The position numbers were made by a program, and so were the translations under genes. Shown one piece after another: positions 2,184 to 25,135 of a DNA stretch of 64,000 bases. The stretch is from an uncultured Acidobacteriota bacterium (lineage in GTDB: Bacteria > Acidobacteriota > UBA6911 > RPQK01 > JAPXNP01), in assembly GCA_963777605.1 (NCBI GenBank), contig CAVZRV010000031.1, forward strand, positions 224,001 to 288,000, written 5' to 3'. How positions within the stretch are numbered: the first letter of the stretch is position 1; each line of letters begins with the position of its first letter. Under the pieces are notes generated by a model. That model searched no databases and was not told the DNA's origin. It saw only the letters and a program-made list of their open reading frames with translations.

Positions 2184-4181
2184 TTAGTGAATCGTGAACT
2201 CCTTGCGAAAGGTCTTTCTCGAATCGCCTTTCTGAACGTCCACCCAGAGCACCCGGTCAGACCACGAAAAGCCGACCTTCTTTACGAACTGGCCGGTGGC
2301 CGGGTCGACGGGAACTTCTTCGCCACCGACTCGCACCGTCGTCCCCGGCTCGACAAAGCCGTACACCTTGGTGGTGGCCGGACCCGTGTCCAGGACCGTA
2401 TTGGGAGATGGATCGGTTCCCAGCAGAACCAGCGGCTCCTCTCGGATCTTTGTCAGTTCGGCGGCCAGGAATCTCCTGACGGCGTAGAAGATCTCCGGAT
2501 CTGTGGTGTAATCGGTCAGGCTCCCGACCAGCCGGCCGCAGATCTCGCGGCTGGCGGTTTTCGGAGAGAACTGATCCGGGCTGACGTTGAGCCGACTCAT
2601 GATCTCTCGGGTCCTCTCCTCGAGCAGCCAGAGATACTCGTAGTCTTCCATTCCCTCCCGCAGCATCTCCCACCGCATCGAACTCATCGGTCCATTCTTG
2701 CCCGGGTAAATGATGTGCGAGTCGCCCGGAGGAAACCGGGGAGCAGGACCGAAAGGATCGTTCCAGCCGTAAGTGAGGCCCCAGTGCAGAAATCCTTCCG
2801 TGCCTGTGAAGTAGTTCATCCAGTGGAGAATCCGGGTCTTGCTCAGGTGATAGTCGAGGAAGCGGTTGGCATAGCGGCCCCAAGGGGCGCAGCAGGTATA
2901 GAACCAGAGCTCCGTACCGCGATCCTGAGCCGCCTTGAAATCGTCGAACCAGGTGTGAACATCCCGGGTGAGCGGAACCATGATATCGAGAGAGTCTTCG
3001 TAGCCAGTCGCTCCGATCGCATCAATCGTCTCGACACCCGGCATGTGTTCGCGAACGAATTTCGCGACGGCCTTCCACTGGCCCATGTTGTGAAAAGAGG
3101 GTTCGTCCGCCACGTGAACAATCGCGCGGTCGAGCCAGCCCCGTTCTCCGAGGTGCCTGTGGAGGTCACTGAGCAAGCCGGCCATCCCCTCATTTTCCGG
3201 GAGAGAAACCCGTTCTCCGCTCGCCCTGTCGACCGGCTTCACGTCATAAATGAGGATCTCGTTTCCTTGTAGTCCCTCCTCCCCATGATGGGCAACATGC
3301 TGGATTTCGATTCTCTCCGCTGTGCCTGCCTCAATGAAGGTCTCGACAAAACGATCGAAATCGGAGTAGTCGTACGTCAGCCTGCCGTCGGCTTCCCGGA
3401 AGATCTTGATCAGGCGCCACGGGGTATAGATCACATTCTGATGATGTTCCGCAAAGTCTCGAGCATAACGACTGAGTATTTCCCAATATTCGTCCGAGAG
3501 AAGTTCCACACCATGCGCTTGGGCGATGTGGTTGCCCTGAAACCAGTTCGTCAGGTAGAGGTGGCGTTCGTCCGGAAGCTCAAAGGGAAAGACGGTCAGT
3601 TCAATCGGAAGATCGACATTTCCCGACGAGGTCTGGACTCCGATGGTGCCCCGATACAAACCTGGCGGTGTCCCTTTGGGAACGCGAGCGGTGATCCAGA
3701 CCGGCTGGGACGTGTCCGCAGGCACAGTGACCGACGTTTCCTCGAGAAGAGGGTCAGGACAGTCAAACGGAGCCAGCCTCAGGAGTTCTCCCGGAGGGAT
3801 ATCGAGATGCTCTCCGCACTCTGCCTCGGTGGTGTTTCGTTCGACCGGAACGTAGCCGACAAATCGCCACTCCAGATTGGCTGCCGCAATTCGAGCTTCT
3901 CCTGACGCGTGAGAGAGTTCCGACACTGTGACCGAGACATTTCGAAGTTCCCGGTCAGAGCGGATCACGAACTGACCCGATTCGAATTCATTTGCTGCAC
4001 TTTCCAGCGTGAGTACCGGTTCCCCGTCAGAAATCAGCCTCGTGTCGTGGAAAATCTTATCGAGCGGGCTCACGACGGAAACCTGTATCTCGCTCTGCGC
4101 GAAAAGACTCGCACCACTTCCGAGGATCAAGCCCGTCACCAAGACTGTCTGCTTCACTAGTTGGTTGATCTCACACTTCAT
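2184..4181 (-). CDS. Secreted glycoside hydrolase family 123-like / DUF4091 domain protein
   Basis: Signal peptide after MKCEINQ. Motifs NEFESGQ, ADEP, LWFYTCC, GFLHWG, PPGDSHIIYPG and SSMRWEMLREGMEDYEYL are typical of DUF4091/GH123-like proteins. Confidence 0.8.
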   Translation of the reverse strand: MKCEINQLVKQTVLVTGLILGSGASLFAQSEIQVSVVSPLDKIFHDTRLISDGEPVLTLESAANEFESGQFVIRSDRELRNVSVTVSELSHASGEARIAAANLEWRFVGYVPVERNTTEAECGEHLDIPPGELLRLAPFDCPDPLLEETSVTVPADTSQPVWITARVPKGTPPGLYRGTIGVQTSSGNVDLPIELTVFPFELPDERHLYLTNWFQGNHIAQAHGVELLSDEYWEILSRYARDFAEHHQNVIYTPWRLIKIFREADGRLTYDYSDFDRFVETFIEAGTAERIEIQHVAHHGEEGLQGNEILIYDVKPVDRASGERVSLPENEGMAGLLSDLHRHLGERGWLDRAIVHVADEPSFHNMGQWKAVAKFVREHMPGVETIDAIGATGYEDSLDIMVPLTRDVHTWFDDFKAAQDRGTELWFYTCCAPWGRYANRFLDYHLSKTRILHWMNYFTGTEGFLHWGLTYGWNDPFGPAPRFPPGDSHIIYPGKNGPMSSMRWEMLREGMEDYEYLWLLEERTREIMSRLNVSPDQFSPKTASREICGRLVGSLTDYTTDPEIFYAVRRFLAAELTKIREEPLVLLGTDPSPNTVLDTGPATTKVYGFVEPGTTVRVGGEEVPVDPATGQFVKKVGFSWSDRVLWVDVQKGDSRKTFRKEFTIH

Positions 4182-13078: not shown

Positions 13079-15328
13079 TTGGCTCGCAGAATCAGGATCG
13101 CCATTGCCCGGTCTGCTAGTCATGAGCCATTTCGATCTGTATTCGGATTGCTTCGGACCCGGTTCTGGGTGCGGGAGTCAAGATCCTGGACCGGGAACAT
13201 CACAGCCGGGTCCTCGGAGAAACCCGCCACTACCGGATCTTCCTGCCTCCCGACTATGACTCGTCGCCGCAGAAGCGGTATCCGGTCATCTACTTCTTTC
13301 ACGGCTGGGGCGAGCGCTACAACCGGGGGCCAAACGAGGGAGCCGGCGCCTATGATTCCGGAAACGATTACGGCGGCGACAACCTCGCGGCCTTCGTCGA
13401 GAAGAACCCCGTGATCGTGGTGAAGTGGGACGGCTACAACCCGCGCACTCCGGGCGAAGACTACGTGCGTCCGTACAATATCGGACCGGTCGAGACTTAC
13501 CGACAGTTCCCGATTTACTTTCCCGAGTTCGTACAGTACATCGACGGCAATTACCGCACCATTGCGGACCGTGCCCACCGGGGGATTTCCGGTCTCTCGA
13601 TGGGCGGCTTCATGGCTTTCTGGGTAGGAGGGAAGTATCCGGACCTGGTGGGAAGCGTCTCGAATTTCATGGGGTCTCCCGAGTTCGTCGTCGGGCCGCG
13701 GGACTTCCCCACCGAGTATCTCCACACCGACATGTACTGCAACTACGAAGGCGTGCGCACCCGTCTGGTGATGGGATCGAGAGACTTCATCCGCTGGTAC
13801 CACGCCCGCATGAACCGGATCTGGGATGTCCTGCGCCCCAATTTCGAACACGAAATCTTCGACTGGGATCACGGCACTCCCGGCATGGACAAGCAGCTGC
13901 AGTTTCACCTGGACGCGTTCCAGGACCCCCTTCCCGAGCCGAGCCTGTGGCACCACATCGATGTCTATCCGACCTTCTCGGTCTGGGGATACTCGGTCTC
14001 GACCGATCGGCACCGCCCGGGATTCACGGTACTGGAGAATGTCACCCGGTCGGGTTTCCGCTGTTCGGTTCGGGAGTGGCTCCCCGACGGCCAGCGGATG
14101 CCCGACGTTCGCACTCAACATCGCGACCGCCCGGATCTACCGCCCATCCGTCGAGTACCAGATCGTCGACGTCAACCTCCACACCGGAACCATCCGCAGG
14201 GAGCGGCAACGTGCCGACCACGACGGACGGCTTCACATCCGGCTGGACGGCGATCTGCACGAGGTCGGCATCGTGGAGGAAGAGGGCCCGGTGCTCACCC
14301 TGGCCGATTTCAAGATCGCCGGTGCCGGCTGGGCCACTGCGGGAAGGCGGGTCAAGCTGGACCTTCACCTGCTCAACAAAGGGACGGTTCCGGCGAAACA
14401 GGTCACCCTCTCTTTGACGTCACCGAACGAGGGAGTCGCCATCTTCCCGGGAGAGACAGAGGTTGAACAACTGGTTCCGGGCCAGAGTCGGATCAGCCCG
14501 GATTTCAGTTTCGAAGTGAAAGACCGGATTCAGGCCGCTGCTGCGTTCGAGCTTCACTTGACAGACGCAACCGGGCGGAGCTGGCAGGTCCCGTTCGAGG
14601 TCATGCTCGTTCCTGAAGTCGAAGAACTCCGGGATGTGGAATTCGCTGACGGCCGGCGACTCAATGTCCAGGTTGGAGGCAACCAGGTCGAGGAGCGGAT
14701 GCTGGGTATCGGCAACGGCGACGGCCGGGTCAATCCCGGGGAATCGATCGTCGCGGTCGTCCGAGACCAGGGTGTCTTTCACCTCCTGTCCCTCCGCTCG
14801 GCCGACCGCTGCGTAAATCCGGCCGGGCTGAACCTTCGCTTTTCCGACTACTGGGGAAACTACGATCACGTCGGGGCCTCGGCCAAGTACTCGATGCCGA
14901 CCATTGCCGCAGACTGTCCAGCCGGTCACCGGATCGCCTTTTTCGCCGAATACCTCGTCCCGAACGCCCCGGAGCACACCCTGAATCAGGGCTTGGTAAC
15001 CGTTCCGGTCACCGGAGCCGACACCACTCCCCCGGCAGTCCGCTCGGCGGAACTGCTGCCGGGCAACCTGCTCGAAACCCAGCTCATCGAGGGCGGAGCG
15101 GTCAAATCGGCCCGCGCCACAATCACCCGAGTCTCCAATCCCACCTTCGCGGTCGAAGTCGAGTTGAATGACAAGGGCCTGAACGGCGACAAGGCGGCCG
15201 GAGACACCTGGTTCAGCGCGGTCGTACCGGAACTCCCCGAAGCAGACTATCGCGTTACGCTGGAGATGACCGACGATTCGGGAAACCGGACGATCGAGAT
15301 CCACGACCTGGTCAAGTCGGGGCCGTGA
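13079..15328 (+). CDS. Secreted alpha/beta-hydrolase (putative esterase) with C-terminal beta-sandwich domains, frameshifted near 13120 and 14110
   Basis: Frame upstream of 13411 reads ETRHYRIFLPPDYD..KRYPVIYFFHGWG. Nucleophile elbow GISGLSMGG. Continues in ORF 13826..15328 (GNGDGRVNPGE, ELNDKGLNGDKAAGDTWFSA). RBS AGGAGG precedes TTG at 13079 (start inferred). Confidence 0.7.
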
Positions 15329-15329
15329 C

Positions 15330-15535
15330 CATTTCAGGCCGGCAACACCCGGGGTATTTCGGCTCCAGCGCCGCCAAAGAGTAATCCAGGCTGCCGAGCC
15401 TGAGATGTACCCGCGGGCTTCCAGCCCGGCGGAACCGTCCTGCTTGCGGTTCGCCGGGCAAGGCTGCCCGGATTCCCTTGGATGCCGGGCAGGGCTGCCC
15501 GGCCGACATGCCAGGCAAGCTGCCTGGACTACTTG
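15330..15535. repeat. Composite palindromic repeat made of type-A terminal modules
   Basis: 15381 gtaatccagg..gcctgagatg is the inverse of the 61139-61166 module. 15484-15532 gccgggcagggctgcccggccgacatgccaggcaagctgcctggactac matches 6474-6522. Confidence 0.75.
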
Positions 15536-16282
15536 GGGGAAGTCGCGTTTTTGACAGCCCAGCAAGTGAAGTCTATCCCCTTTTCTTGCGATTTGAATCT
15601 TTCGCACTGGTCTTCTGGTGACCTGGGAGGTCCTCTGTCGGTCGAACTGAACGGCGAAATCGTCTCGGGCGAGACGGAGTTCACGATTCCCGGAGGATGC
15701 CGCCCGAACGGTTCTGTCTCAGGGCAGGCTCAAGCTGGGTATCGGAGCGCATCGAGCCCTCTTCCTGGACCAGTTTCAGTGGGCTCCCAGCATTGATTTC
15801 ACCGCGTTTGAAGGAACCCTTCGGGCCCGGGCAGACGGCCGAACCGCCGCCACCGTCCTGCAGTCCCGACCGGACAATTCGCCACCATGCCCGTGTCCCC
15901 CAAGCCCGCCGGATTGATTGCGCGAATTAAGATCTGAGCCAACGGCGCCCCTGTCCACACGGGGGGAAATCGAAAGAGTGCGACAGGTTACGGCGCACTG
16001 CACGCCACCGCCGATTTAAAGGGAGAGTAGGAGGTCCATGTGGAAACTTCAGATCATCATGGATTGCCCATCCTGGATCTTGCCTCAATCCGAACGGTTC
16101 CGGCCTCCGGCATCAGTGCTAAGTACATCCGAACGTCCGGCGCGGCGCTCGAGTAGGAAATGCAGGCTCTTCACGATCGCACCGTGAACAGCAGCCTCAA
16201 AGTCTCTGAGATCGCCCCGAACTCGATCCAAGCGAGGCCAGTTCATCCAGTTCATCCAAGGATGAAGCCTCAAGGCAGTCGT

Positions 16283-17384
16283 TCACATTTTCCAGCTCAA
16301 CAGCTCCCGGCCGTAGTCGAGCAGCGGCGGTTCTCCGAACCGATCTACGTAATCCTGGTTCACCCAACAGGTGACCGAAGTGATATTCCGGATTCCGACC
16401 TTCTTGAGGAATTCCAGGTCTTCGTGTAGCACCTCGGGATTCCATGGAGCCCGAACCCATCTCTCCTCCTTCGTCTTCCAGCCACTGGCCCGGTAAGAAT
16501 CAAACCAGTACTCGAAAACCTGGGCGCCCTCTGAACCGAAGATCTCGAGATTGGCATAGAGCTGGTCCACCAGCCGGCCATGTTCGCCGTCCTTTGCACT
16601 GCGATCCGTATAGGGCCGATCGTGGGTTCGTGTGATCGGAGCCCACTCCAGGAAGACTCCCGGATCCGGCTTCACCTGGCGAGGCGGAGCCAGGGTGTGG
16701 AACGTATGCCGGATGGCTGACGGTTGCGGTTGGGTTCTCACGCCGCAACGCCTTGACGATCGAATTCTGGACCATCAGGGTCTGGTCACTGGGCGAGTAA
16801 ATGCGGCATTTCGGGCAAAGAACACAGATTCTTGGCGTCATCCGAAATGTAGAGGTATCGCCCCGTGGTCGACCGGAGCAACTGCGACCACTTCAGCCGC
16901 ATTTTCGGTGACAATCCCAAGGGCACGTATCGAACTGACGCAGAAGTTGGAATCCGGGGTCCGCTCCGTCCCGGTTCATCCGGAACATTGACGGGTCCTT
17001 CGTGAAAAGGTCCCGGGGCAGAAGCGTGGAATAGGAGTGGAGCGAGTGTTCCACGTCCAGGCCGAACCGGGCACAATCCGCCTGAAAAACCTTGCCCTTC
17101 TCAGTGCCGAGAAAAGCCAGAATCTCCGCCGGGTCGTGATGCGTAGCAATCGTGTTCAACCCGGCGGCATGTGCCTTCGCCGGCCAGTCCCATCTGGCTA
17201 AATCCGTCGCCCAAACGGTCACTCCTCGCCGTTCGAAGTAGGGTGAAGTGCCGTTGTCTTGGGGACTCCCCCTGACCGATCGAGGCAACCCGAATGCTGC
17301 CAAGCCGGTGACCGCCAGGGTCCAGCCACCCAGAAACGAACGCCGGGAAGTAAGCCGCCGGAAATCTTGCCCGCCAAGGTCCAT
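16283..17384 (-). CDS. Tat-exported DUF4838-like protein, several frameshifts
   Basis: TSRRSFLGG Tat motif. WPAKAHAAGLNTIATH, VEHSLHS..LLPRDLF..PSMFRMN, CxCxxC (CSLPEMP/LCPKC across frames), FLEWAPITR, AQVFEYWFDS, GIRNITS spread over ORFs 16893..17417, 16500..16841 and 16283..16741. Confidence 0.65.
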
Positions 17385-17690
17385 CGCTCGAACCTCCCTT
17401 TCATCAGATCGTAACAACGCCGAGGCCCAGGAACAATGGTCAGATCAACCCAGGAGTGAATACGGCCACGAGAGAACTGAACATGGCGATCAGTTGGTGT
17501 TCAGAACCAAAACGAAGCGGTCAACACTCCCTTTGGCCAATGCCCAGCATCGCGGACTCCTTCGCGTGATCGGCAGGTGGGGGGCATCGCCGGCTCAGGG
17601 GTCTACGTTCCCACCACCGGCCCTGCCCCTTCTAAGGGGAAGTCCGCGTCCTGCACTGCGCAAGAGTCTGCTCCGAATTGTTGACCGCCG

Positions 17691-17855
17691 TCATCCTCTA
17701 GTATTCGGCGGTGGAGGCGGAGGCGGAGGACTCGGACAGCAGTCTTCCGTTTGAACCGTCGTATCTTGAGACTCCACTCCTGAGCCGGTTTGCGTATCCG
17801 TCGGAGCGACAGCCGACAATGCCATTAAGGTCACAACCAAAATCCACTCAACCAT
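17691..17855 (-). CDS. Small secreted Cys-Cys/poly-Pro peptide precursor (54 aa; absent from the supplied ORF track)
   Basis: Manual translation: MVEWILVVTLMALSAVAPTDTQTGSGVESQDTTVQTEDCCPSPPPPPPPPNTRG*. RBS-like AAAGGGAG about 6 nt upstream. Hydrophobic N-terminus ending in AVA. Confidence 0.72.
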   Translation of the reverse strand: MVEWILVVTLMALSAVAPTDTQTGSGVESQDTTVQTEDCCPSPPPPPPPPNTRG

Positions 17856-17924
17856 TTCTTACTCCCTTTCTTGTCCATCGGACCCACGCAGCCTAGACCC
17901 GGCCCACGGTTGGGACCAAAAATT

Positions 17925-17972
17925 TTCAGCAGGACCGAACACTTTGGCGTTCGAGTGTTCGGAAATTCCGAA
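17925..17972. promoter_or_regulatory. Paired palindromic operator TTCGG-N5-CCGAA (sites 17925-17939 and 17958-17972)
   Basis: TTCAG-caggA-CCGAA (one mismatch) and TTCGG-aaatt-CCGAA, 33 bp apart, in the divergent peptide/7TM intergenic region. Same architecture at 19903-19950. Confidence 0.7.
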
Positions 17973-18057
17973 AAGTGGTGACGAAAACGGAGTCCTTGAT
18001 CTAAGCTTGAGATCGCGAATAGACTTCAGGGGATGTCGCCGTCTGAAATCCCGACGT

Positions 18058-18771
18058 ATGTCAACACGGCTACTATTGGTGGTACTGGTCGTCCGGATCG
18101 TGCGCAAGAGATTGGCTGCCCGCTACCGGGTGTTTGTGGGTTATCTGGTGTTCGAGACGGTTTCAGTCCTGATCTCGGATTGGATCATCTTGGACTTCGG
18201 ATTGGAGTCGTCAGTGTACCGGGTTCACTACTACGCATACTCGACCCTGACCCCAGCATTGCAGATCTGGGTGCTCATCGACCTGGCCCGCCGGAACTTC
18301 AGGCTCGGCAGTGAGGCGCCCCACGCCACCAGTGTGCTCGCCGTGCTCTCGCTCCTGGTGGGGCTTCCGGTGTTCGTTTTCGTAGGGTTCTTACCAGTCT
18401 ACGGCTATGACCGGGTTCAGGCGATCAGCCTGGTTTTTCAAATGGTTCTGACCCTGCTGATCTACCTCTACCTGCTGGAACGACGGGACATCGACCCGGG
18501 AAAGAACCTCAAGGCTATTCTGGGCGGGATGACCCTGATGGTCACCTGCCAGTCGTTGAATTTCCTGAGCTATTTCCAGGACCGAATCGGATTTGAGTTT
18601 TTCCAGTTCGGGGTTCCGGCTATCTACGGCGTGGCCCTGCTGATCTTCACAGCCGGCCTTTGGAACTACGCACCGGCAAGCGCGTCGGCGGAACAGCGCA
18701 CGCTGAACCTGGGATTGCAGCGGAGCGTCCGTTTGATGCTGCACCTTCTCTACGAGAGGCCATCCAGCTAA
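18058..18771 (+). CDS. Predicted 7-transmembrane membrane protein (candidate peptide receptor)
   Basis: Seven hydrophobic segments (LLLVVLVVRIV; VFVGYLVFETVSVLI; YYAYSTLTPALQIWVLI; VLAVLSLLVGLPVFVFVGFL; AISLVFQMVLTLLIYLYLL; AILGGMTLMVTCQSLNFLSYF; FGVPAIYGVALLIFTAGLW). True start may be ATG 18033 with a frameshift. Confidence 0.75.
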   Translation: MSTRLLLVVLVVRIVRKRLAARYRVFVGYLVFETVSVLISDWIILDFGLESSVYRVHYYAYSTLTPALQIWVLIDLARRNFRLGSEAPHATSVLAVLSLLVGLPVFVFVGFLPVYGYDRVQAISLVFQMVLTLLIYLYLLERRDIDPGKNLKAILGGMTLMVTCQSLNFLSYFQDRIGFEFFQFGVPAIYGVALLIFTAGLWNYAPASASAEQRTLNLGLQRSVRLMLHLLYERPSS

Positions 18772-19200
18772 TGAGATTCGATGACTACATTGAGATCTAC
18801 TTCCTGGGACTGGTCGTCTGCGTGGCCATCGTTGCGGCATACTACCACCTGGCCCGGATCGAGGTCCGGGAATCGGATCGCGAGAAGCTCAGCGAGGCCA
18901 ACCTCAACCTGGAAGTGATCCTGATCATGCTGGAAGCGCCCGACACGCAGTACCTGATGTCAAGATCGGGCAAAGGAAAGTTCCTCTTCACGGAGTATTC
19001 CCGCTCGCTCAGGGCAGACGTCCTGGGGCTCATCCGGACACGGGAATTGGGTCTGAAGTCCTACGGGCTGATTGCCGCCTTTTACGTTGCCTACTGGGTC
19101 ATGTCCTGGAAGAGCAAGCTCTCGGCCAGCCTCAACGACATTCGCGGTGCTCTCCGCGCTGGAACTCAGGCTGGTCCGCGCTCTAGTCGTTCTGAGTCCT
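18771..19200 (+). CDS. Small membrane protein translationally coupled to the 7TM gene (about 140 aa; 3' end probably frameshifted)
   Basis: TAATG stop/start overlap at 18769-18773. MRFDDYIEIYFLGLVVCVAIVAAYY N-terminal TM and a second hydrophobic segment YGLIAAFYVAYWVM. The ORF-track extension to 19604 overlaps the convergent regulator and is probably an indel artefact. Confidence 0.65.
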
Positions 19201-19762
19201 CAGCAGAACAGCGCACACCAGTTGACGAGGTAGTGCTGAACCAGCTTCTCCACGAAACTCGGGCACCCTTCCGCCTTGAGGAAGAAATGGTAGGTGGTGT
19301 TGAGGAAATCCTGGTGCCACCACATCCCCTGGTTGGGCGGGTCTCCGTTTTCCAGGCGGACGAGGCATCGATCGAGCAGGAAGTCGCTCAGGTTCTGATA
19401 CATCACGATCCGGCACGATCGGCCCCGGGCCTCGAACAACGCGCCTCCTTCAGCCTGGGACAGGCGAATGACCTCTCCCAGCCGAAACTCCTGGAGCCGC
19501 CTCAAGTAGAGGAGTTCGTTGTCCTCGGCGCGGGTACCCGACACCTCCAACGGCCAAACCGCCGTGATGTCGATCTCGAGCGCTGCCAGCACCCTGAACA
19601 GTGACTCCAGGTTCAAACGGTATGCACGGCTTCCATTGACCCATAAGAACTCGTATGAATGCCGGCTCGCTCCGCAATTTCTCTCACACCGACGTTCTTG
19701 GAGAGCCGCAGTCGTCGAAGCCGCTGTCTGACAAAATCGTTCACCGATAGCCCGGAAAGCAT
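19200..19762 (-). CDS. XRE/Cro-CI family HTH transcriptional regulator with a ~120-aa C-terminal domain, frameshift near 19620
   Basis: FVRQRLRRLRLSKNVGVREIAERAGIHTSSYGSMEA joined to LNLESLFRVLAALEIDITAVWP gives a complete HTH_3-type domain. RBS GGGGGA upstream. Confidence 0.78.
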
Positions 19763-19902
19763 GATTTCCCCCCTTGTGACACTGTGCGGAGAAACGTTAT
19801 CGGCGGCTTCGCTCGCTGTCAATACCCAGCAACGACACTTCGCCGATAATCCGGGTGACCATCCTCGATGGACCTCGGAAATGCTTCAAATTCGCTCGCC
19901 TG

Positions 19903-19950
19903 TTCGGACATTCCGAACACTGTAGGCCCGGCGTGTTCGGGTATGCCGAA
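19903..19950. promoter_or_regulatory. Paired palindromic operator TTCGG-N5-CCGAA (sites 19903-19917 and 19936-19950)
   Basis: TTCGG-acatt-CCGAA and TTCGG-gtatg-CCGAA, 33 bp apart, between the divergent XRE gene and hybrid kinase gene. Confidence 0.72.
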
Positions 19951-20057
19951 TTGTCATCCGGTTAAAGGCCATCCTCGGTTAGAGTTCCTTTGAGGCGAAT
20001 GGTTTTCGAAAACATGGACGTTCAATTCGGCGAATTGCTGCTCATGGAGGAAAGCGC

Positions 20058-21824
20058 ATGACACCTCCACGGCGAAAGACACTCTGGTTTATCTTCCTCT
20101 ATGTCGGCGTGGCCGGAAGTTGGATCATCGTTTCCGATTACGGCCTGGAGTTCCTACTCGGAGTCTCCGAGGAATCCCTGACATGGCAAACGATCAAGGG
20201 TCTGGCCTACGTTGCGGTCACCTGCCTGGTGCTTGCCCTCTGGTTCCACCGCCACGTCAAGAATGAACATGATGCCTATCAGAAACTTGACGAAGACAAG
20301 AGAACACTTGAGGCACTGGTAGCAAAAGTCACCGCCCAGCAGAGAGACGAGAGCCTGCACCAACAGATGTTCGAACACTCCCCCGATCTGCTCTTTATCG
20401 CGGACTCTGACGGAAGACTGAGAGAGCTGAATCCGGCTTGGAGGCACGTCCTCGGCTGGCCCCTGGATGAGATTACCTCTCGCCCGTGGAGAGACTTGGT
20501 CCACCCTGAGGACCTCGCGGCCACGGTTGCAGCCGAGAAGCAGGTCGCCCAGGGTCAGCCGATAACCGGTTTGGAGAATCGATGCCGCTGTGTGGACGGT
20601 AGTTACCGAACACTGTTCTGGACCATGATCCTGCTCGACCAGGAAGGTTCTCTCTTTGGTTCCGGCCGGGATGTCACGGAACAAAAGCAGATGGAGCGGG
20701 AACTCATTCATGCACAAAAAATGGAAAGCCTCGGCCACCTGGCCGGTGGCCTTTCGCATGACTTCAAAAACCTTCTCACCGTGATCGTTGCTCACGCGGA
20801 ACTGGTCAGAATGGACCTCCCCGAGGAGGAGTTCCCGGAAATTTCCGACGCCCTGGCACAGATCATCGAGGCCGGCAGCAAAGCGACCGAGTTGGCGGAT
20901 CGTCTGCTGGTCTTCGCGCGGAAGAAGAAGGTTCAGATATCGGCCCAAATCAATCCCTTAATTGAAGACCTCAAGAAGCTTCTCGCACCGATGCTGGGTA
21001 AAAGGATTGCGATCGAACTGGATCTGGACCCAAGGCTGGGAAACATCCTCCTGGACGAGTCCCAGCTCGAGCAGGTACTGATGAATCTTTGTGTCAATGC
21101 CAAAGATGCCATGCCTGAAGGGGGTTGCCTCGTCATCCGGACACGAGCGATCACGTTGACCGAATCGGAGGTTCTCAACCTGGCCGGGGGGACGTTCGCC
21201 GAGATTACAGTGAAAGACACGGGCACCGGGATTCCTGAAGAGTTTCGCCCCCACATTTTTGAACCATTTTTCACAACCAAGTCGGATTTGGGTGGAACCG
21301 GCCTGGGGCTTTCCACTGTCTATGCGATCGTTACCGGAGCCGGGGGCCACGTGTCGTTCGACAGTCTCACCGGCGACGGGACTCGATTCCGCATCCTTCT
21401 GCCGTTAGATGGCGACAGCGAGGCCGAGCCAAGTCAACGAGCGGTTCCAACCGGCTCAGCTACCGTCCTTCTGGTCGATGATGACCCCGCCCTTCGAAAA
21501 ACCCTCGAGCGATCTCTCAGTCGTTGGGGATATGAAGTCCTCACGGCCGCCAACGGCGGGGAGGCACTCCGAGTGGCAGCGCAGCACCCGAGGCGAATTG
21601 ACCTCTTGCTCACCGACATCGCGATGCCCGGCATCAGCGGTCTGGATCTTGCGTACCAGCTCGGTCGTGATCGCCCGGAAGCCGCAGTGCTCTTTCTGTC
21701 GGGTTCCCCGGAAGTCAAGGATTCCGACCTTGCTCGAGACGCCCGATTCATCGAGAAACCGTTCCGAGCCGAAGAACTGGCTCGAAGAATCGAGGAGGCA
21801 CTGGCCGACACCGGTATTCAGTAG
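20058..21824 (+). CDS. Membrane-anchored PAS hybrid sensor histidine kinase/response regulator (CckA-like)
   Basis: Two N-terminal TMs, PAS ([15 protein letters not shown]), H-box [14 protein letters not shown]-box [29 protein letters not shown], receiver ([22 protein letters not shown]). Confidence 0.93.
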
Positions 21825-23524
21825 CCAAAGGCGCAGCCGGCGCGCCTGGGGTCGCTCGCTCCGTGCCAGTTCCCTTCCCCATCGTTGAGGATGGCCTGGT
21901 AGCCCCCGAAAAACTGCTGTGTTCCCAGCGGGTTTGTGCGGTGTCCAAGGTGCTCGAGCTGGCGAATGACTCCCTGGGCCACGCCGACCTCGTATGCGAC
22001 CGACCCGCCCTGTTCCATCCGCTCCCCCCAGGGCTGGCTGGAACCCATGTGACGGATTCGGGGGGCGTCCCCCGCTTCCTGGATGTCCATTCCGAAATCG
22101 ATCATGTTGACCAGCACCTGGACGTGGCCTTGAGGCTGCATGTTGCCGCCCATCACCCCGAAGCTCAGCCAGGGCCGGCCGTTCCGGGTGACAAAGCTGG
22201 GGATGATGGTGTGGAAAGGGCGCTTGTGAGGCTCCAGCCCGTTGGGATGCTCCGGATCGAGGTTGAACATCGCACCCCGATTCTGCAGTACAAAACCGAG
22301 GTTGTTCGGCACCCATCCCGATCCGAACGCCCAGGAGTTGCTTTGAATCAGGCTCACCATGTTGCCGTCCTTGTCGGCAACCGCCATGAAAATGGTATCG
22401 CGCTCTTCCGGCATGTCGCCCGGCGAGTCGGTCATCAGGACGCGGTCGGGCCGGATCAGCTTTCGCCGCTCGGCGGCATACTCCTTGGAGAGCAGGCGAT
22501 CGAGCGGGATCTTCGCAAATTCCGGGTCGGCATAGTAGCGGGCGCGGTCGGCGAAGGCCAGCTTTTTGGCCTCGATCAAGACATGCAGGTATTGGGCGCT
22601 GTTGAATCCCATGGAGGCAAGGTCGTACCCCTCGAGAATATTCAGCATCTGGAGCGCGGCGATTCCCTGCCCGTTGGGAGGAAGTTCCCAGACTTGATAG
22701 CCCCGGTAGTCAACCGAAACCGGATCGACCCACTGTCCGTGCTGATCGGCAAAATCTTTCATGCTGAGAAACCCGTTGTGCCGCTTTGAGAACTCCACGA
22801 TGCGCTCGGCAATTTCACCTTTGTAGAAGGCATCGCGACCGCTGCGGGCGATCATTCGATAGGTGTCCGCCAGGGCCTGGTTTTTGAAGAAACTGCCGTT
22901 CTTCGGAAAGTGGCCGTCCGACATGTAGGTGTCGGCGAACCCGGGAATGTCGTAGTAGGCAGGCCCCGGATCGTCCCAACCCCTGATCGGAAAGCCGCTC
23001 TCGGCATATCCGATTGCAGGCTGCAGCAATTGCCCAAGATCCATGGTTCCAAAACGCTCCAGCAGCATCGACCAGCCATCAACGCACCCGGGCACCGTCC
23101 AAACCGCCGGCTCCTGAGCCGGAATCGCCGTGTAGCCCCGCGATTTCACGGCATCGACATCGATTGCGTAGGGCGAGCGTCCACTCGCATTGAGTCCGTA
23201 GAGCTTCTGTGATCGGGCATCCCAGTAAATCACGAACAAATCGCCCCCGATTCCGGAATTGGCGGGTTCCGCAAGTCCGATCATGGCGTTCGCGGCTACC
23301 GCTGCATCGATGGCGTTGCCCCCTCGCTTCAGGACGTCCAGACCAACCATGACGGCCAAAGGCTGGCTGGTCGCCACCATGCCATTCGGCGTGGAGACGA
23401 TTTCCCGGGTCTTGCCCATCATGAATCGCCGCGTTCCTGCGTCCTGGGCAGACAGGGAAACCAGGACGAAAGAGGTTACAGCCAACGTCGCAATCAACCG
23501 TTTCCAGGACTCAAACCCGTGCAT
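21818..23524 (-). CDS. ggt: Gamma-glutamyltransferase
   Basis: GMVATSQPLA, GGNAIDAAVA, GIGGDLF, TVPG, ELPPNGQG, EAKKLAFADR, catalytic Thr in DTIF, KRPFHTIIP, GVMGGNMQPQGH, GASDPRR. Confidence 0.93.
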   Translation of the reverse strand: MHGFESWKRLIATLAVTSFVLVSLSAQDAGTRRFMMGKTREIVSTPNGMVATSQPLAVMVGLDVLKRGGNAIDAAVAANAMIGLAEPANSGIGGDLFVIYWDARSQKLYGLNASGRSPYAIDVDAVKSRGYTAIPAQEPAVWTVPGCVDGWSMLLERFGTMDLGQLLQPAIGYAESGFPIRGWDDPGPAYYDIPGFADTYMSDGHFPKNGSFFKNQALADTYRMIARSGRDAFYKGEIAERIVEFSKRHNGFLSMKDFADQHGQWVDPVSVDYRGYQVWELPPNGQGIAALQMLNILEGYDLASMGFNSAQYLHVLIEAKKLAFADRARYYADPEFAKIPLDRLLSKEYAAERRKLIRPDRVLMTDSPGDMPEERDTIFMAVADKDGNMVSLIQSNSWAFGSGWVPNNLGFVLQNRGAMFNLDPEHPNGLEPHKRPFHTIIPSFVTRNGRPWLSFGVMGGNMQPQGHVQVLVNMIDFGMDIQEAGDAPRIRHMGSSQPWGERMEQGGSVAYEVGVAQGVIRQLEHLGHRTNPLGTQQFFGGYQAILNDGEGNWHGASDPRRAGCAFGY

Positions 23525-23693
23525 GGACACCTCTCTGATGATGGGGGTTGGCAAACAACAGCGTGCCCAAGATAGTCTGCCGGGCAACTGCATAGCAAGT
23601 CTGCGGGGATTCGCAGGGTAGCGGACACTCACCGAACGTGATTGAATCGGTTCCTGCATTGGACCCCACGAATTCCGTGCCCAGGGAGGCGCC

Positions 23694-25135
23694 ATGAAGA
23701 TCGTTCGATCATCGCTTGGAGTTTCAGCGATAAGTTCCCTCACTCAAGGTCTCTCCGTTCTCGTTCTCGCTCTCCTCACCCTTACGTCTGCGTGTGCAAA
23801 AACGGACCCGCTACCAGGTGGCTCGACCATGAGATCACCCGCAAATTTGGGAAACAAAGATCGCCTGGAGTGGTTTCGTGAAGCCCGATTCGGGATGTTC
23901 ATTCACTGGGGTCTCTATGCTCTCCCGGCGGGGGAATGGAATGGGCGGACCAACCACGGGGAGTGGATTCAGTTCCAGGAAAGTATTCCCGGAGCCGAGT
24001 ACGAGAAGCTTGCCGGCCAATTCAACCCGGTCGAATTCGACGCAAAGGAGTGGGTGTCGGTAGCGAAACAGGCCGGGATGAAATACATGGTGATCACGAC
24101 CAAGCACCACGAAGGCTTCGTCATGTACGACTCCCAGTTGACCGACTATGACATTGTGGAGGCCACGCCCTTCGGCCGGGATCCGATGAAAGAGCTCGCC
24201 GAGAGTGCCGCCGACAGGGCATCACCCTGTGCTTCTACTATTCGGTACAGGACTGGCATCATCCGGACTATCCGACACTCTACACCCGGCGGGACAAGCG
24301 GCATCCCGAGGGCTTCCACGGTTTCGCCAATCCCGATGCCGACTTCCTGAAGTACATGGACTACCTCCAGGGCCAGGTCCGGGAACTGCTCACCAACTAT
24401 GGCCCGGTCGGGATTATCTGGTTCGACTGGTACGGGGACGCCTTCCAGTCGCCAGCCGAACTGCAGCGGGCAAAGGACGTGGTCTCCATGATCCATGAAC
24501 TGCAGCCGAACTGCCTCGTAAACAATCGCTTCGGTGGCGTCGGCGCGGACTACGGCACTCCGGAACAGCAGATCCCGGGGGGAAGTCAGGCAACCGCCTT
24601 CGAGGTCTGCATGACCATGAACGGTCACTGGGGCTACAACAGTCACGACGACAACTGGAAGGACGCCAGGACCATCGTTTTTAACCTTTGCGACATCGCG
24701 AGCAAGGGGGGCAATTACCTGCTCAATGTCGGGCCCACCGCCGAGGGACGGTTTCCCGACGAATCGGTGAGAATCCTGAAGGAGGTTGGCCGCTGGACAG
24801 CTGCCAACGGTGAGGCAATCTATGGAGTCGCAGCGGGGCCGGACATGAGATGGGAGGCCGATATCGACATGGTGACCCGGCGGCCTGACCGGGACTACCT
24901 CCACGTGTTCAGGTGGCCCAAGGACGGTAAGATCTTTTATCAATATCCCTTCTTCGAATTCGAACGCGGCCTCAAAAAGGTCTACCTCCTGCTCGATGAG
25001 TCCCGCACTCCCCTGCCGGTCGCGAAGTTTCGCCGCGCGATCCAGTTTGAGGTTCCCCAGGAGGCGCCCGACCCGATCAACAGTATTGTCGTCGTCGAAT
25101 ATGAGACGTCCAAAATCAAGCCAGGAGATCACTGA
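23694..25135 (+). CDS. Alpha-L-fucosidase (GH29), lipoprotein-like signal, frameshift near 24210
   Basis: RFGMFIHWG and TTKHHEGF in ORF 23694..24350. IIWFD, FEVCMTMNGHWGY and SKGGNYLLNVGP in ORF 24356..25135. Confidence 0.9.

Follow-up and report, generated by a model that had tools for sequence, protein, structure and literature searches.

A 64,000-nucleotide (nt) stretch from the genome of an uncultured Acidobacteriota bacterium (assembly GCA_963777605.1, contig CAVZRV010000031.1, positions 224,001 to 288,000 of the forward strand; hereafter the window, whose coordinates are used throughout) encodes a compact cassette of four genes: a small peptide with a cysteine pair and a proline-rich tail, a seven-transmembrane-helix (7TM) protein, a small membrane partner, and a regulator with an XRE-family helix-turn-helix (HTH) domain. 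Regulator, partner, and 7TM genes keep company in other genomes, paired operator-like dyads recur in the promoter between the peptide and 7TM genes, and structure prediction places the regulator on a loop of the partner. We assign a probability of about 0.5 to the reading that the whole chain is a membrane-controlled transcription module of one order of Acidobacteriota; the step from regulator to operator is rated higher than this, and the step that involves the peptide lower.

Conservation of the cassette in Acidobacteriota

The initial annotation, made from the letters of the window, proposed the cassette as a peptide-signaling system whose genes should be linked in other genomes, and this linkage was found: XRE regulator, partner, and 7TM protein were encoded together in 23 of the 23 distinct loci outside this genome that could be assessed (the conservation tallies include the unpublished genome G018). 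These loci were reached by two routes. Relatives of the 7TM protein at 25-33% identity were identified in 16 of 40 related genomes (6 of the 15 from the same family; the others belong to further families of the order), and in all 11 loci of this route the partner and regulator genes adjoined the 7TM gene in the same arrangement. A scan with the regulator alignment, restricted to one genome per species, returned 33 loci, every one of them titled Acidobacteria or Acidobacteriota, in agreement with the annotator's mention of similar gene pairs in Acidobacteria. A full-length regulator was present in 23 of these 33, and partner and 7TM genes accompanied it in 21; the two exceptions were a locus at a contig end (L036) and a degenerate copy (L039). 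Nine of the 21 were places also reached via the 7TM protein, which gives the 23 distinct loci. The other 10 loci matched the HTH part only and had other C-domains and no membrane genes, except for weak matches in L050.

When all open reading frames (ORFs) of at least 80 amino acids were clustered, the regulator, the partner, and the 7TM protein were the only families common to 21 of 21 loci; the next real family near the cassette, receiver-domain proteins, was found in 5 of 21. In every locus, the regulator gene converged on the partner and 7TM genes. A partner profile was detected in 7 of 300 other genomes sampled evenly across the phylum: 7 of the 19 from the same order and 0 of the 281 outside it. 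Among the genomes searched, the range of the module is thus one order of Acidobacteriota, in several families of which it occurs outside this genome in single or double copy and in stable contexts.

Some of these loci had features of their own. The receiver-domain neighbors were encoded in L021 (5675-6040), L028 (2839-3336), L030 (2854-3270), L032, and L038; in L030, a dyad on the XRE side (3311) lies just upstream of the divergent receiver gene, echoing the kinase-facing operator of the window. In L040 (CBDCOR010000022.1), the regulator was split, with the HTH part about 1.7 kb upstream of the C-domain part (1387-1788 and 3459-3908), as if something had been inserted into the gene. Loci L041-L050 (metagenome-assembled genomes SMAG_U15852 and PL23a_bin.88) encoded a multicopy sister family with a closely similar HTH and a different, longer C-terminal part.

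Gene layout and selection

All four ORFs proposed for the cassette were recovered in the window. The small peptide ORF (17691-17855, minus strand), taken from the ORF list, encodes 54 amino acids and is divergent from the 7TM ORF (17944-18771, plus strand), in which the usable ATG at 18058 gives a protein of 237 amino acids (18058-18771). The partner gene follows on the plus strand, its ATG (18771) overlapping the 7TM stop codon TAA as TAATG, and in a tally of ORF coordinates, 13 of 24 loci had a partner start that overlaps the 7TM stop. By match to the paralogs in this genome, the partner gene spans 18771-19195; its intact paralogs encode 140 amino acids. The XRE-family regulator gene (19200-19822, minus strand) is convergent with these two, has its likely start at the Met used by the paralogs (19762), and encodes the HTH domain and a C-domain of about 115 amino acids. 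Beyond it, a hybrid histidine kinase gene (20058-21824, plus strand; PAS, HisKA, HATPase_c, and receiver domains by Pfam) faces the second of two operator pairs, of which it is a probable target outside the core of the module.

Variable sites among the paralogs piled up at third codon positions in every frame, so that all four are genes under purifying selection: at codon positions 1/2/3 there were 7/8/28 variable sites in the peptide gene (47 sites per position), 45/11/94 in the 7TM gene (232 per position), 11/5/27 in the partner gene (126 per position), and 23/14/65 in the C part of the XRE gene (135 per position).

The window copy itself may be partly broken and no longer autonomous. Indels in five places were called by aligning the four full copies of the cassette, as read from the assembled sequence. 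Compared with the other three full copies, the XRE gene has lost 1 nt near 19626, within its HTH domain, and is thereby split into ORFs at 19613-19822 (69 amino acids) and 19200-19616 (138 amino acids); the convergent regulator gene of the initial annotation was thus correctly placed, but it is not a single ORF. A 1-nt insertion near 18068 leaves the start codon of the 7TM paralogs (18033) out of frame in the window copy. Further 1-nt insertions near 19145, 19190, and 19206 shift the 3' end of the partner gene, with the window ORF extending to 19604 and the paralog stop at the position matching about 19195, and these insertions also alter the last residues of the regulator. A promoter and terminator scan gave no excess of terminator-like sites over shuffles, an Rfam scan of 14000-22000 gave no match, and a search of sequencing runs listed no RNA run as containing the sequence, with three runs holding 5-7% of the sampled words.

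Operator dyads

The pattern CCGAACAC-N12-GTGTTCGG had been described as one double palindrome present in both promoters of the cassette. The sharing is well supported: in the window the pattern matched twice (17935-17962 and 19913-19940) versus an expected 0.02, and at least two matches were obtained in 0 of 100 shuffles of the window. Its 10 occurrences in the 6.7-Mb assembly, 7 of them exact and 3 with one mismatch, all fall at cassette copies, and the reversed control pattern gave 0 matches. The term "double palindrome" is better replaced, as the pattern consists of the two inner half-sites of two adjacent 15-bp dyads plus three extra conserved bases; in its exact form it was absent from the searched loci of other genomes. 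Operator pair 1 (17925-17972, unstranded), in the divergent peptide/7TM promoter, comprises TTCAGCAGGACCGAA (17925-17939; TTCAG-N5-CCGAA, one mismatch) and TTCGGAAATTCCGAA (17958-17972; TTCGG-N5-CCGAA), which start 33 bp apart. Operator pair 2 (19903-19950, unstranded), between the XRE gene and the divergent hybrid kinase gene, comprises TTCGGACATTCCGAA (19903-19917) and TTCGGGTATGCCGAA (19936-19950), with the same 33 bp between starts. The motif TTCGG-N5-CCGAA occurs four times in the window, three of them at the cassette, against an expectation of 0.23.

An inverted-repeat search of peptide/7TM intergenic regions identified TTYGG-N5-CCRAA as the common dyad in other genomes. In 21 loci of other genomes, and with at most one mismatch allowed, this dyad reached 3.5 per kb near the 7TM start and 0.32 per kb elsewhere, and pairs 32-33 bp apart were present in 13 of 21 loci; three control patterns ranged from 0.11 to 0.68 per kb near the 7TM start and from 0.14 to 0.19 elsewhere, each with 32-33-bp pairs in 0 of 21 loci. 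Beyond these 13, four loci had at least one dyad at the peptide/7TM region; in L029, the contig ends there. A count of k-mers shared between the two promoter regions was uninformative, known positive included.

Dyads were also seen at other sites. In L019 (4565-4611), L020 (4574-4620), and L022 (4571-4617), which belong to one genus, a second perfect dyad pair, 32 bp apart, lies between the 7TM and partner genes; the gap between the two genes in this genus is 200-320 nt, and the partner there has its own operator. Single dyads outside the promoter region were found in five loci, within the 7TM-partner gap (L023, L025, and L037) or within the 7TM ORF (L026 and L027).

A 51-nt inverted match between 17925-17975 and 19900-19950 raised the possibility of a mobile element with terminal inverted repeats. 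This was rejected because the repeated unit (17706 to about 19985) runs past both arms and because the "arms" are operator pairs that are present in single-copy loci of other genomes.

The regulator and its predicted docking on the partner

A profile of 25 regulator homologs matched DdrO, C.BclI, C.AhdI, and SinR (E values of 2e-6 to 2e-4), and the homologs carry PF01381 and PF13560, which makes them members of the XRE HTH family. In the window, the N-terminal XRE ORF scored below the Pfam cutoff for HTH_31 (20.4 versus 27 bits) because the frameshift truncates it. An AlphaFold2 (AF2) model of the regulator (predicted local distance difference test [pLDDT] score of 85) has HTH helices at residues 7-61, a flexible linker, and then a confident C-domain of a-bb-a-bb-a order (helix 79-102, two hairpins, and helices 127-138 and 169-190; pLDDT of about 90 over residues 90-180). 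Sequence and fold matches, to DdrO, ClgR, C.BclI, C.Esp1396I, and SinR, all ran through the HTH. The C-domain was not assigned to a family by Pfam, NCBIfam, PADLOC, or PHROGs, nor did it have one in any homolog, and an Atlas search returned no usable match; a roadblock/MglB-like match of the regulator model (1j3w, rank 50, TMq 0.37) was too weak for use. Pfam and the AF2 model also agree with the initial annotation that the regulator lacks a tetratricopeptide repeat (TPR) or receiver domain and that the 7TM protein lacks a kinase domain.

The partner begins with a transmembrane (TM) helix preceded by almost nothing, continues with a loop of about 65 residues that holds the invariant P57 and D58 within the motif L-(L/V)-(E/D)-A-P-D, and ends with a second, short hydrophobic segment before an amphipathic tail that is conserved. 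It had no family in Pfam, NCBIfam, PADLOC, or PHROGs. The initial annotation had supposed that a signal passes from the partner to the C-terminal domain of the XRE protein, a link now favored by a controlled complex prediction in which the 7TM protein, the partner, and the regulator were modeled together from 22-row alignments sharing one order of loci and the regulator chain was scored. The complex scored 0.63 (runs of 0.62, 0.64, and 0.63). The best of three controls, in which the 7TM chain was replaced and the partner-regulator pair left intact, scored 0.43, and the two controls with a replaced regulator scored 0.00 and 0.00. For reference, the docking mark is reached by 58 of 80 solved complexes and by 2 of 110 mismatched pairs. 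The runs agreed in at least 59% of contacts, and the pLDDT of the partner chain was at least 71.

In the confidently predicted interface, partner residues 44-79 face regulator residues 83-91, 151-153, and 169-188, and no 7TM residue is named. The partner contributes the invariant P57 and D58 together with the near-invariant I50, A56, and R69; the regulator contributes the near-invariant Q91 and its C-terminal helix. On this model, the C-domain of the regulator probably docks on the partner loop, which would then have to be cytoplasmic, in agreement with the basic residues just after TM1.

The 7TM protein

An AF2 model of a paralog 88% identical to the 7TM protein (pLDDT of 85; predicted TM-score of 0.77) shows seven TM helices followed by a C-terminal amphipathic helix at 219-240. 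As read from the sequence, basic residues follow TM1, TM3, and TM5, which suggests that the N terminus is outside and the C terminus inside. The invariant residues of the family are R21, Y62, G156, N158, Q173, N176, and F190; no Cys, His, Asp, or Glu is invariant in the family alignment, so that a peptidase or similar enzyme is unlikely. TM7 (model residues 187-208) contains no Lys, and no Lys is conserved anywhere in the family.

The protein lies outside the characterized families, as the initial annotation had expected, with no assignment in Pfam, NCBIfam, PADLOC, or PHROGs. A Pfam scan of 40 diverse relatives left 38 without a match and gave a single marginal match in each of the other two (E values of 0.0018 and 0.0082). 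A word-based homology search returned eight close relatives, none of them named, and an Atlas feature search returned unnamed Acidobacteriota clusters in which all neighbors were "hypothetical protein." A profile search of 1.84 billion representatives gave 537 relatives at E values of ≤0.001 and 178 at ≤1e-10; nearly all of the 150 listed were stand-alone proteins of 220-280 amino acids.

The small CC/proline peptide

The 54-amino-acid peptide of the window, MVEWILVVTLMALSAVAPTDTQTGSGVESQDTTVQTEDCCPSPPPPPPPPNTRG, has a hydrophobic signal-like N terminus, a Thr/Ser/Gln-rich linker, and the tail DCCPSPPPPPPPPNTRG, which reads DCC-PS-PPPPPPPP-NTRG. A scan of the neighbors of the 7TM gene for small Cys/Pro ORFs, as the initial annotation had suggested, recovered in 21 of 22 assessable loci a small ORF upstream of and divergent from this gene; 19 of these ORFs encode CC followed by a Pro-rich tail (L029, at a contig edge, is left out of these counts). 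Shared by these ORFs are a short N terminus (in many cases with a single Lys or Arg), a hydrophobic stretch some 12-18 residues long, and a variable Ser/Thr/Pro/Gln-rich linker; in the 19 loci, the Cys pair is followed within a few residues by the Pro-rich tail, examples of which are CCADPPPPPPPGGRG, CCGPVAPPPPPPPPAER, CCGYPPPDGGDS, and CCVEPWPCFPGEVCH. The strict CC/Pro motif had no other match among the six-frame ORFs of 50 loci. Between copies in this genome, the C-terminal end of the tail varies (NTRG versus CRDGNC). The hydrophobic stretch is of signal-peptide length, and the peptide may be cleaved and released. In Pfam, NCBIfam, PADLOC, and PHROGs the peptide was unassigned, with only a subthreshold Pfam match to PRIMA1 (E value of 0.0086; 16.3 bits versus a cutoff of 38.6).

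Copies in this genome and the genes that face the operators

By BLASTN, this genome holds four full and two partial copies of the cassette at about 85% nucleotide identity, the repeated unit running from about 17706 to about 19985 (2.2 kb). Two further full copies, C30a and C30b, lie on contig C30 (84.9% and 85.7% identity) and are intact, with a 7TM protein of 246, a partner of 140, and a regulator of 192 or 213 amino acids. One full copy lies on C44, within a 7.7-kb stretch of 88.9% identity, and the two partial copies lie near 407 kb of C30 and, with the regulator alone, on C13. The regulator is intact (191-213 amino acids) in the C30a, C30b, C44, and C13 copies. In the C44 copy the membrane genes contain many frameshifts and the regulator ORF is open. 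However, 1-nt deletions run over the whole length of this stretch, including the kinase gene and a gamma-glutamyltransferase-like gene (the latter named by ORF reading), so a divergent strain or the quality of the contig may account for the frameshifts; the contamination estimate of the assembly is 5.68%.

The copies differ in the gene that faces the operator on the XRE side. In the window this is the hybrid PAS-HisKA-HATPase-receiver kinase. In C30a it is a gene for a 259-amino-acid protein with a signal-like N terminus, followed by genes for a 1,899-amino-acid RHS-repeat protein, an RHS/SLT protein, and a TonB_C protein; in C30b it encodes a 285-amino-acid protein with the same N terminus as the 259-amino-acid protein, with a MopE-motif protein encoded downstream. 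A 687-amino-acid S8 subtilase is encoded opposite the partial C30 copy, and the C13 copy has a reprolysin-like metallopeptidase on one side and a 256-amino-acid protein with a 1,582-amino-acid RHS-repeat protein on the other. By BLASTP, no relation was detected between the 256-amino-acid protein at the C13 operator and the 259-amino-acid protein of C30a (E value of 0.14). These gene contents lend circumstantial support to the idea that, in this genome only, the operators may be aimed at exported competition factors. In loci L051 (G000:C30:383001-403000), L052, and L054 (G000:C13:1-14000), which contain these cassette copies, the genes for the two RHS-repeat proteins, the RHS/SLT and TonB_C proteins, the subtilase, and the metallopeptidase each lie downstream of or divergent from an operator pair.

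The locus of the window is present in three versions. Compared with window positions 16280-24000, C44 (22665-30348) is 97-99% identical in the flanks and 78-90% identical in the cassette and kinase, with many 1-nt deletions, and C45 (32134-34248) is without about 17.5-21.8 kb of the window, that is, the cassette plus the kinase. The three versions suggest either a strain mixture or a presence/absence polymorphism of the cassette and kinase. The segment that C45 lacks is bordered on its left by a palindrome, CTGAACA-N14-TGTTCAG (17477-17504), which is kept in C44; at its right border, near 21814, there is a similar heptamer, TATTCAG. The palindrome is possibly a site of recombination or a terminator. 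The middle of 16283-17417 is also missing from the C45 version. This segment (minus strand) contains consecutive ORFs of 152 and 174 amino acids, the upstream one with a twin-arginine-like N terminus (RRSFLGG), which look like one gene split by a frameshift. Further upstream, short GC-rich hairpin-forming repeats at 15461-15539 and 16046-16260 (e.g., GGGCAGGGCTGCCCGG ... CCAGGCAAGCTGCCTGG) had about 30 BLASTN matches at about 82-90% identity for the first and about 15 at about 68-90% for the second, across many contigs of the same assembly; they look like repetitive extragenic palindromic (REP)- or miniature inverted-repeat transposable element (MITE)-like elements.

Proposed mechanism and alternatives

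In the mechanism that we propose, the XRE regulator would recognize TTYGG-N5-CCRAA dyads, as the position and conservation of the motif suggest. Two dyads three helical turns apart would serve a divergent promoter that drives the peptide gene in one direction and the 7TM-partner operon in the other. The partner would be a membrane-bound anti-regulator that holds the regulator through its C-domain, docked on the cytoplasmic loop; anti-sigma factors, as membrane-bound inhibitors of regulators, follow the same logic. The 7TM protein, translationally coupled to the partner and resembling a receptor-like bundle without conserved catalytic residues, would be the sensor, and the peptide a likely extracytoplasmic ligand or third subunit that alters whether the regulator is held or released. 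Because the operator would control both the peptide and the receptor genes, the loop would feed back on itself. In this genome, the operator pair on the XRE side would also have been placed before RHS-repeat operons, secreted proteases, and the hybrid kinase. A more specific version, a new signaling class in which the 7TM protein and an adaptor hold an XRE factor until a disulfide-capable CC-polyproline peptide from neighboring cells releases it, we consider unlikely.

Several observations weigh against this mechanism. At the DNA level, no dyad with up to one mismatch was found at the peptide/7TM region in 3 of 21 loci, the dyad motif was counted in the very loci that had been used to refine it, these loci are relatives rather than independent samples, and a scan for sigma-70-like promoters in 17400-20200 gave 0 sites. 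A dyad upstream of the regulator gene is typical of the copies in this genome but was found in only 3 of 21 other loci (L018, L028, and L030), so that XRE autoregulation is not a general feature. The topology of the partner is ambiguous, as its loop and C-tail are both basic and the second hydrophobic segment may therefore not span the membrane. The docking job, with its own 22-row alignments and three chains, is unlike the calibration of the method, and its margin over the best control is exactly the 0.20 required. For the 7TM model, the best Foldseek matches (proteorhodopsin, other microbial rhodopsins, and class B/C G protein-coupled receptor [GPCR] transmembrane domains) had TM-scores of 0.42-0.53 and E values of 0.04-0.6 (best, 0.039; none ≤0.001), and the outside loops are 4-5 residues long, which makes a peptide binding site hard to place. 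As for the peptide, L034 had no such ORF within the 628 nt present, and the related L031 and L035 encode APPPPLPPPK(T/K)R with no Cys pair.

The very short periplasmic loops of the 7TM model would also suit an envelope machine with a local repressor, in which the peptide, 7TM protein, and partner form a structural, transport, or envelope-stress complex with the peptide as a fixed subunit, and binding of the XRE protein to the partner is product feedback. Gene order does not vary, the 21 loci share no linked exporter, protease, or kinase, and the N terminus of the peptide, as read from its sequence, often lacks a clean signal peptidase site and may stay anchored, all as such a complex would predict. 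However, no part carries a transporter or enzyme signature, the docking, as predicted, involves the partner's most conserved motif, beyond what product feedback would need, and the same operators stand at unrelated exoprotein genes in this genome, which fits a regulatory output; we regard the envelope machine as doubtful, if less so than the alternatives that follow. Competition between strains offers a second framework, in which the peptide would be a kin marker or a toxin of the bacteriocin type, immunity would come from the 7TM protein and the partner, and the XRE protein would be a local switch. The genome of the window speaks for it in several ways: four full and two partial copies at about 85% nucleotide identity, RHS-repeat proteins next to copies, a version of the locus without the cassette on C45, peptide tails that differ between copies, and frameshifted membrane genes beside an open regulator ORF on C44. 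Yet the C44 frameshifts may be a matter of contig quality, outside this genome the cassette is found in single or double copy in stable contexts in several families, no dedicated exporter is linked, the three non-HTH proteins match nothing in PADLOC or PHROGs, and an immunity protein has no evident need to bind a regulator. This explanation seems to us improbable.

Least credible is a polyproline ORF that acts as a translational sensor, in which elongation factor P (EF-P)-dependent ribosome stalling on the eight Pro codons is the regulated event and the peptide is functionless. Runs of 6-10 Pro codons are indeed the most conserved feature in many loci, but the hydrophobic N terminus and Cys pair are conserved as well, the runs are interrupted or short in several loci (CCGYPPPDGGDS and CCVEPWPCFPGEVCH), and the codon-position bias shows selection on the whole protein. 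In addition, the peptide ORF points away from the 7TM operon and is followed by nothing conserved, which leaves nothing to attenuate; we think this sensor very unlikely.

Implications

A full-text literature search of open-access papers and bioRxiv found no description of the module. By sequence comparison, its three non-HTH components (peptide, 7TM protein, and partner) are new families, and the membrane-controlled transcription module as a whole looks like a new route by which a signal at the cell envelope could reach genes. Soils and sediments are rich in Acidobacteriota, which are hard to grow, and to our knowledge almost nothing has been learned about the ways in which these bacteria sense one another or their environment. 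Here the system is defined by four genes, a 15-bp operator with a fixed 32-33-bp pairing, and a predicted interface with named residues, and it is small enough to be rebuilt in a laboratory host and tested without growing the source organism. If the predicted docking is true, the principle of the membrane inhibitor would extend beyond sigma factors and LytTR proteins to the XRE family, a very large one, and would be joined by a receptor-like 7TM protein. The operators before RHS-repeat operons and secreted proteases in this genome point to possible control of competition factors, and if the peptide does come from neighboring cells, the module would be a means of quorum or kin sensing in Acidobacteria that switches on RHS-repeat, protease, and kinase genes in this genome.

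Comparison with known systems

In the RRNPP systems (Rgg/SHP, ComR/XIP, and PlcR/PapR), an XRE-type regulator is encoded beside an exported peptide gene and has its sites in the peptide promoter. The cassette resembles these in its XRE-type HTH, in the putative regulator sites of its peptide promoter, and in its small ORF with a signal-like N terminus (21 of 22 loci), which lies here beside the 7TM gene and about 2 kb from the regulator. It differs in that the regulator has no TPR but a C-domain of about 115 amino acids with four strands and three helices, in that the host is a diderm acidobacterium and not a Firmicute, and in the obligatory linkage of two membrane proteins; moreover, RRNPP regulators bind an imported peptide, whereas the regulator here is predicted to bind a membrane protein. 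Agr (AgrBDCA) combines a Cys-containing precursor peptide, encoded beside a polytopic membrane protein, with an autoregulated promoter region. Unlike AgrB, the 7TM protein has no catalytic His/Cys of that type, and unlike Agr and ComCDE, the core contains no histidine kinase or response regulator, with receiver genes adjoining 5 of 21 loci.

The closest solved relatives of the HTH domain are the C proteins of restriction-modification systems and the DdrO and SinR repressors. Controller proteins bind paired dyad operators as two dimers, and the titles of PDB entries for C.Esp1396I agree; the regulator here is set apart from them by the lack of linked restriction-modification genes, by its extra C-domain, and by its predicted membrane partner. 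Type II toxin-antitoxin systems are likewise a poor match, as the regulator gene is transcribed toward the 7TM and partner genes rather than together with them, and the other three proteins have no PADLOC match. The seven-helix bundle, the probably outside N terminus, and the amphipathic helix after TM7 are shared with microbial rhodopsins and GPCR transmembrane domains; unlike the rhodopsins, the 7TM protein has no retinal-type Lys in TM7, and the comparison gave no significant E value and no sequence similarity. Two adjacent Cys directly before a polyproline run are also found in the PRAD (proline-rich attachment domain) motif of the cholinesterase anchors ColQ/PRiMA, in which four amphiphilic helices wrap around a polyproline II helix. 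This motif serves extracellular assembly in animals, and the low-complexity resemblance does not imply homology.

Finally, the LytTR systems HdrRM and BrsRM of Streptococcus mutans each pair a regulator with an inhibiting transmembrane protein and have repeats in their own promoter (PMC6193735). Together with extracytoplasmic function (ECF) sigma-anti-sigma pairs, they would share with the cassette a regulator paired with a membrane protein, repeated sites in the system's own promoter that may give a feedback loop, and no phosphotransfer, the inhibition being a prediction in our case. The regulator here has an XRE HTH domain and is neither LytTR nor sigma-70, and the direct repeats of the LytTR systems are replaced by inverted dyads 32-33 bp apart. 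Their regulator is encoded in the operon of the membrane gene, whereas that of the cassette is convergent, and in place of one membrane part there are three: the 7TM protein, the partner, and the peptide.

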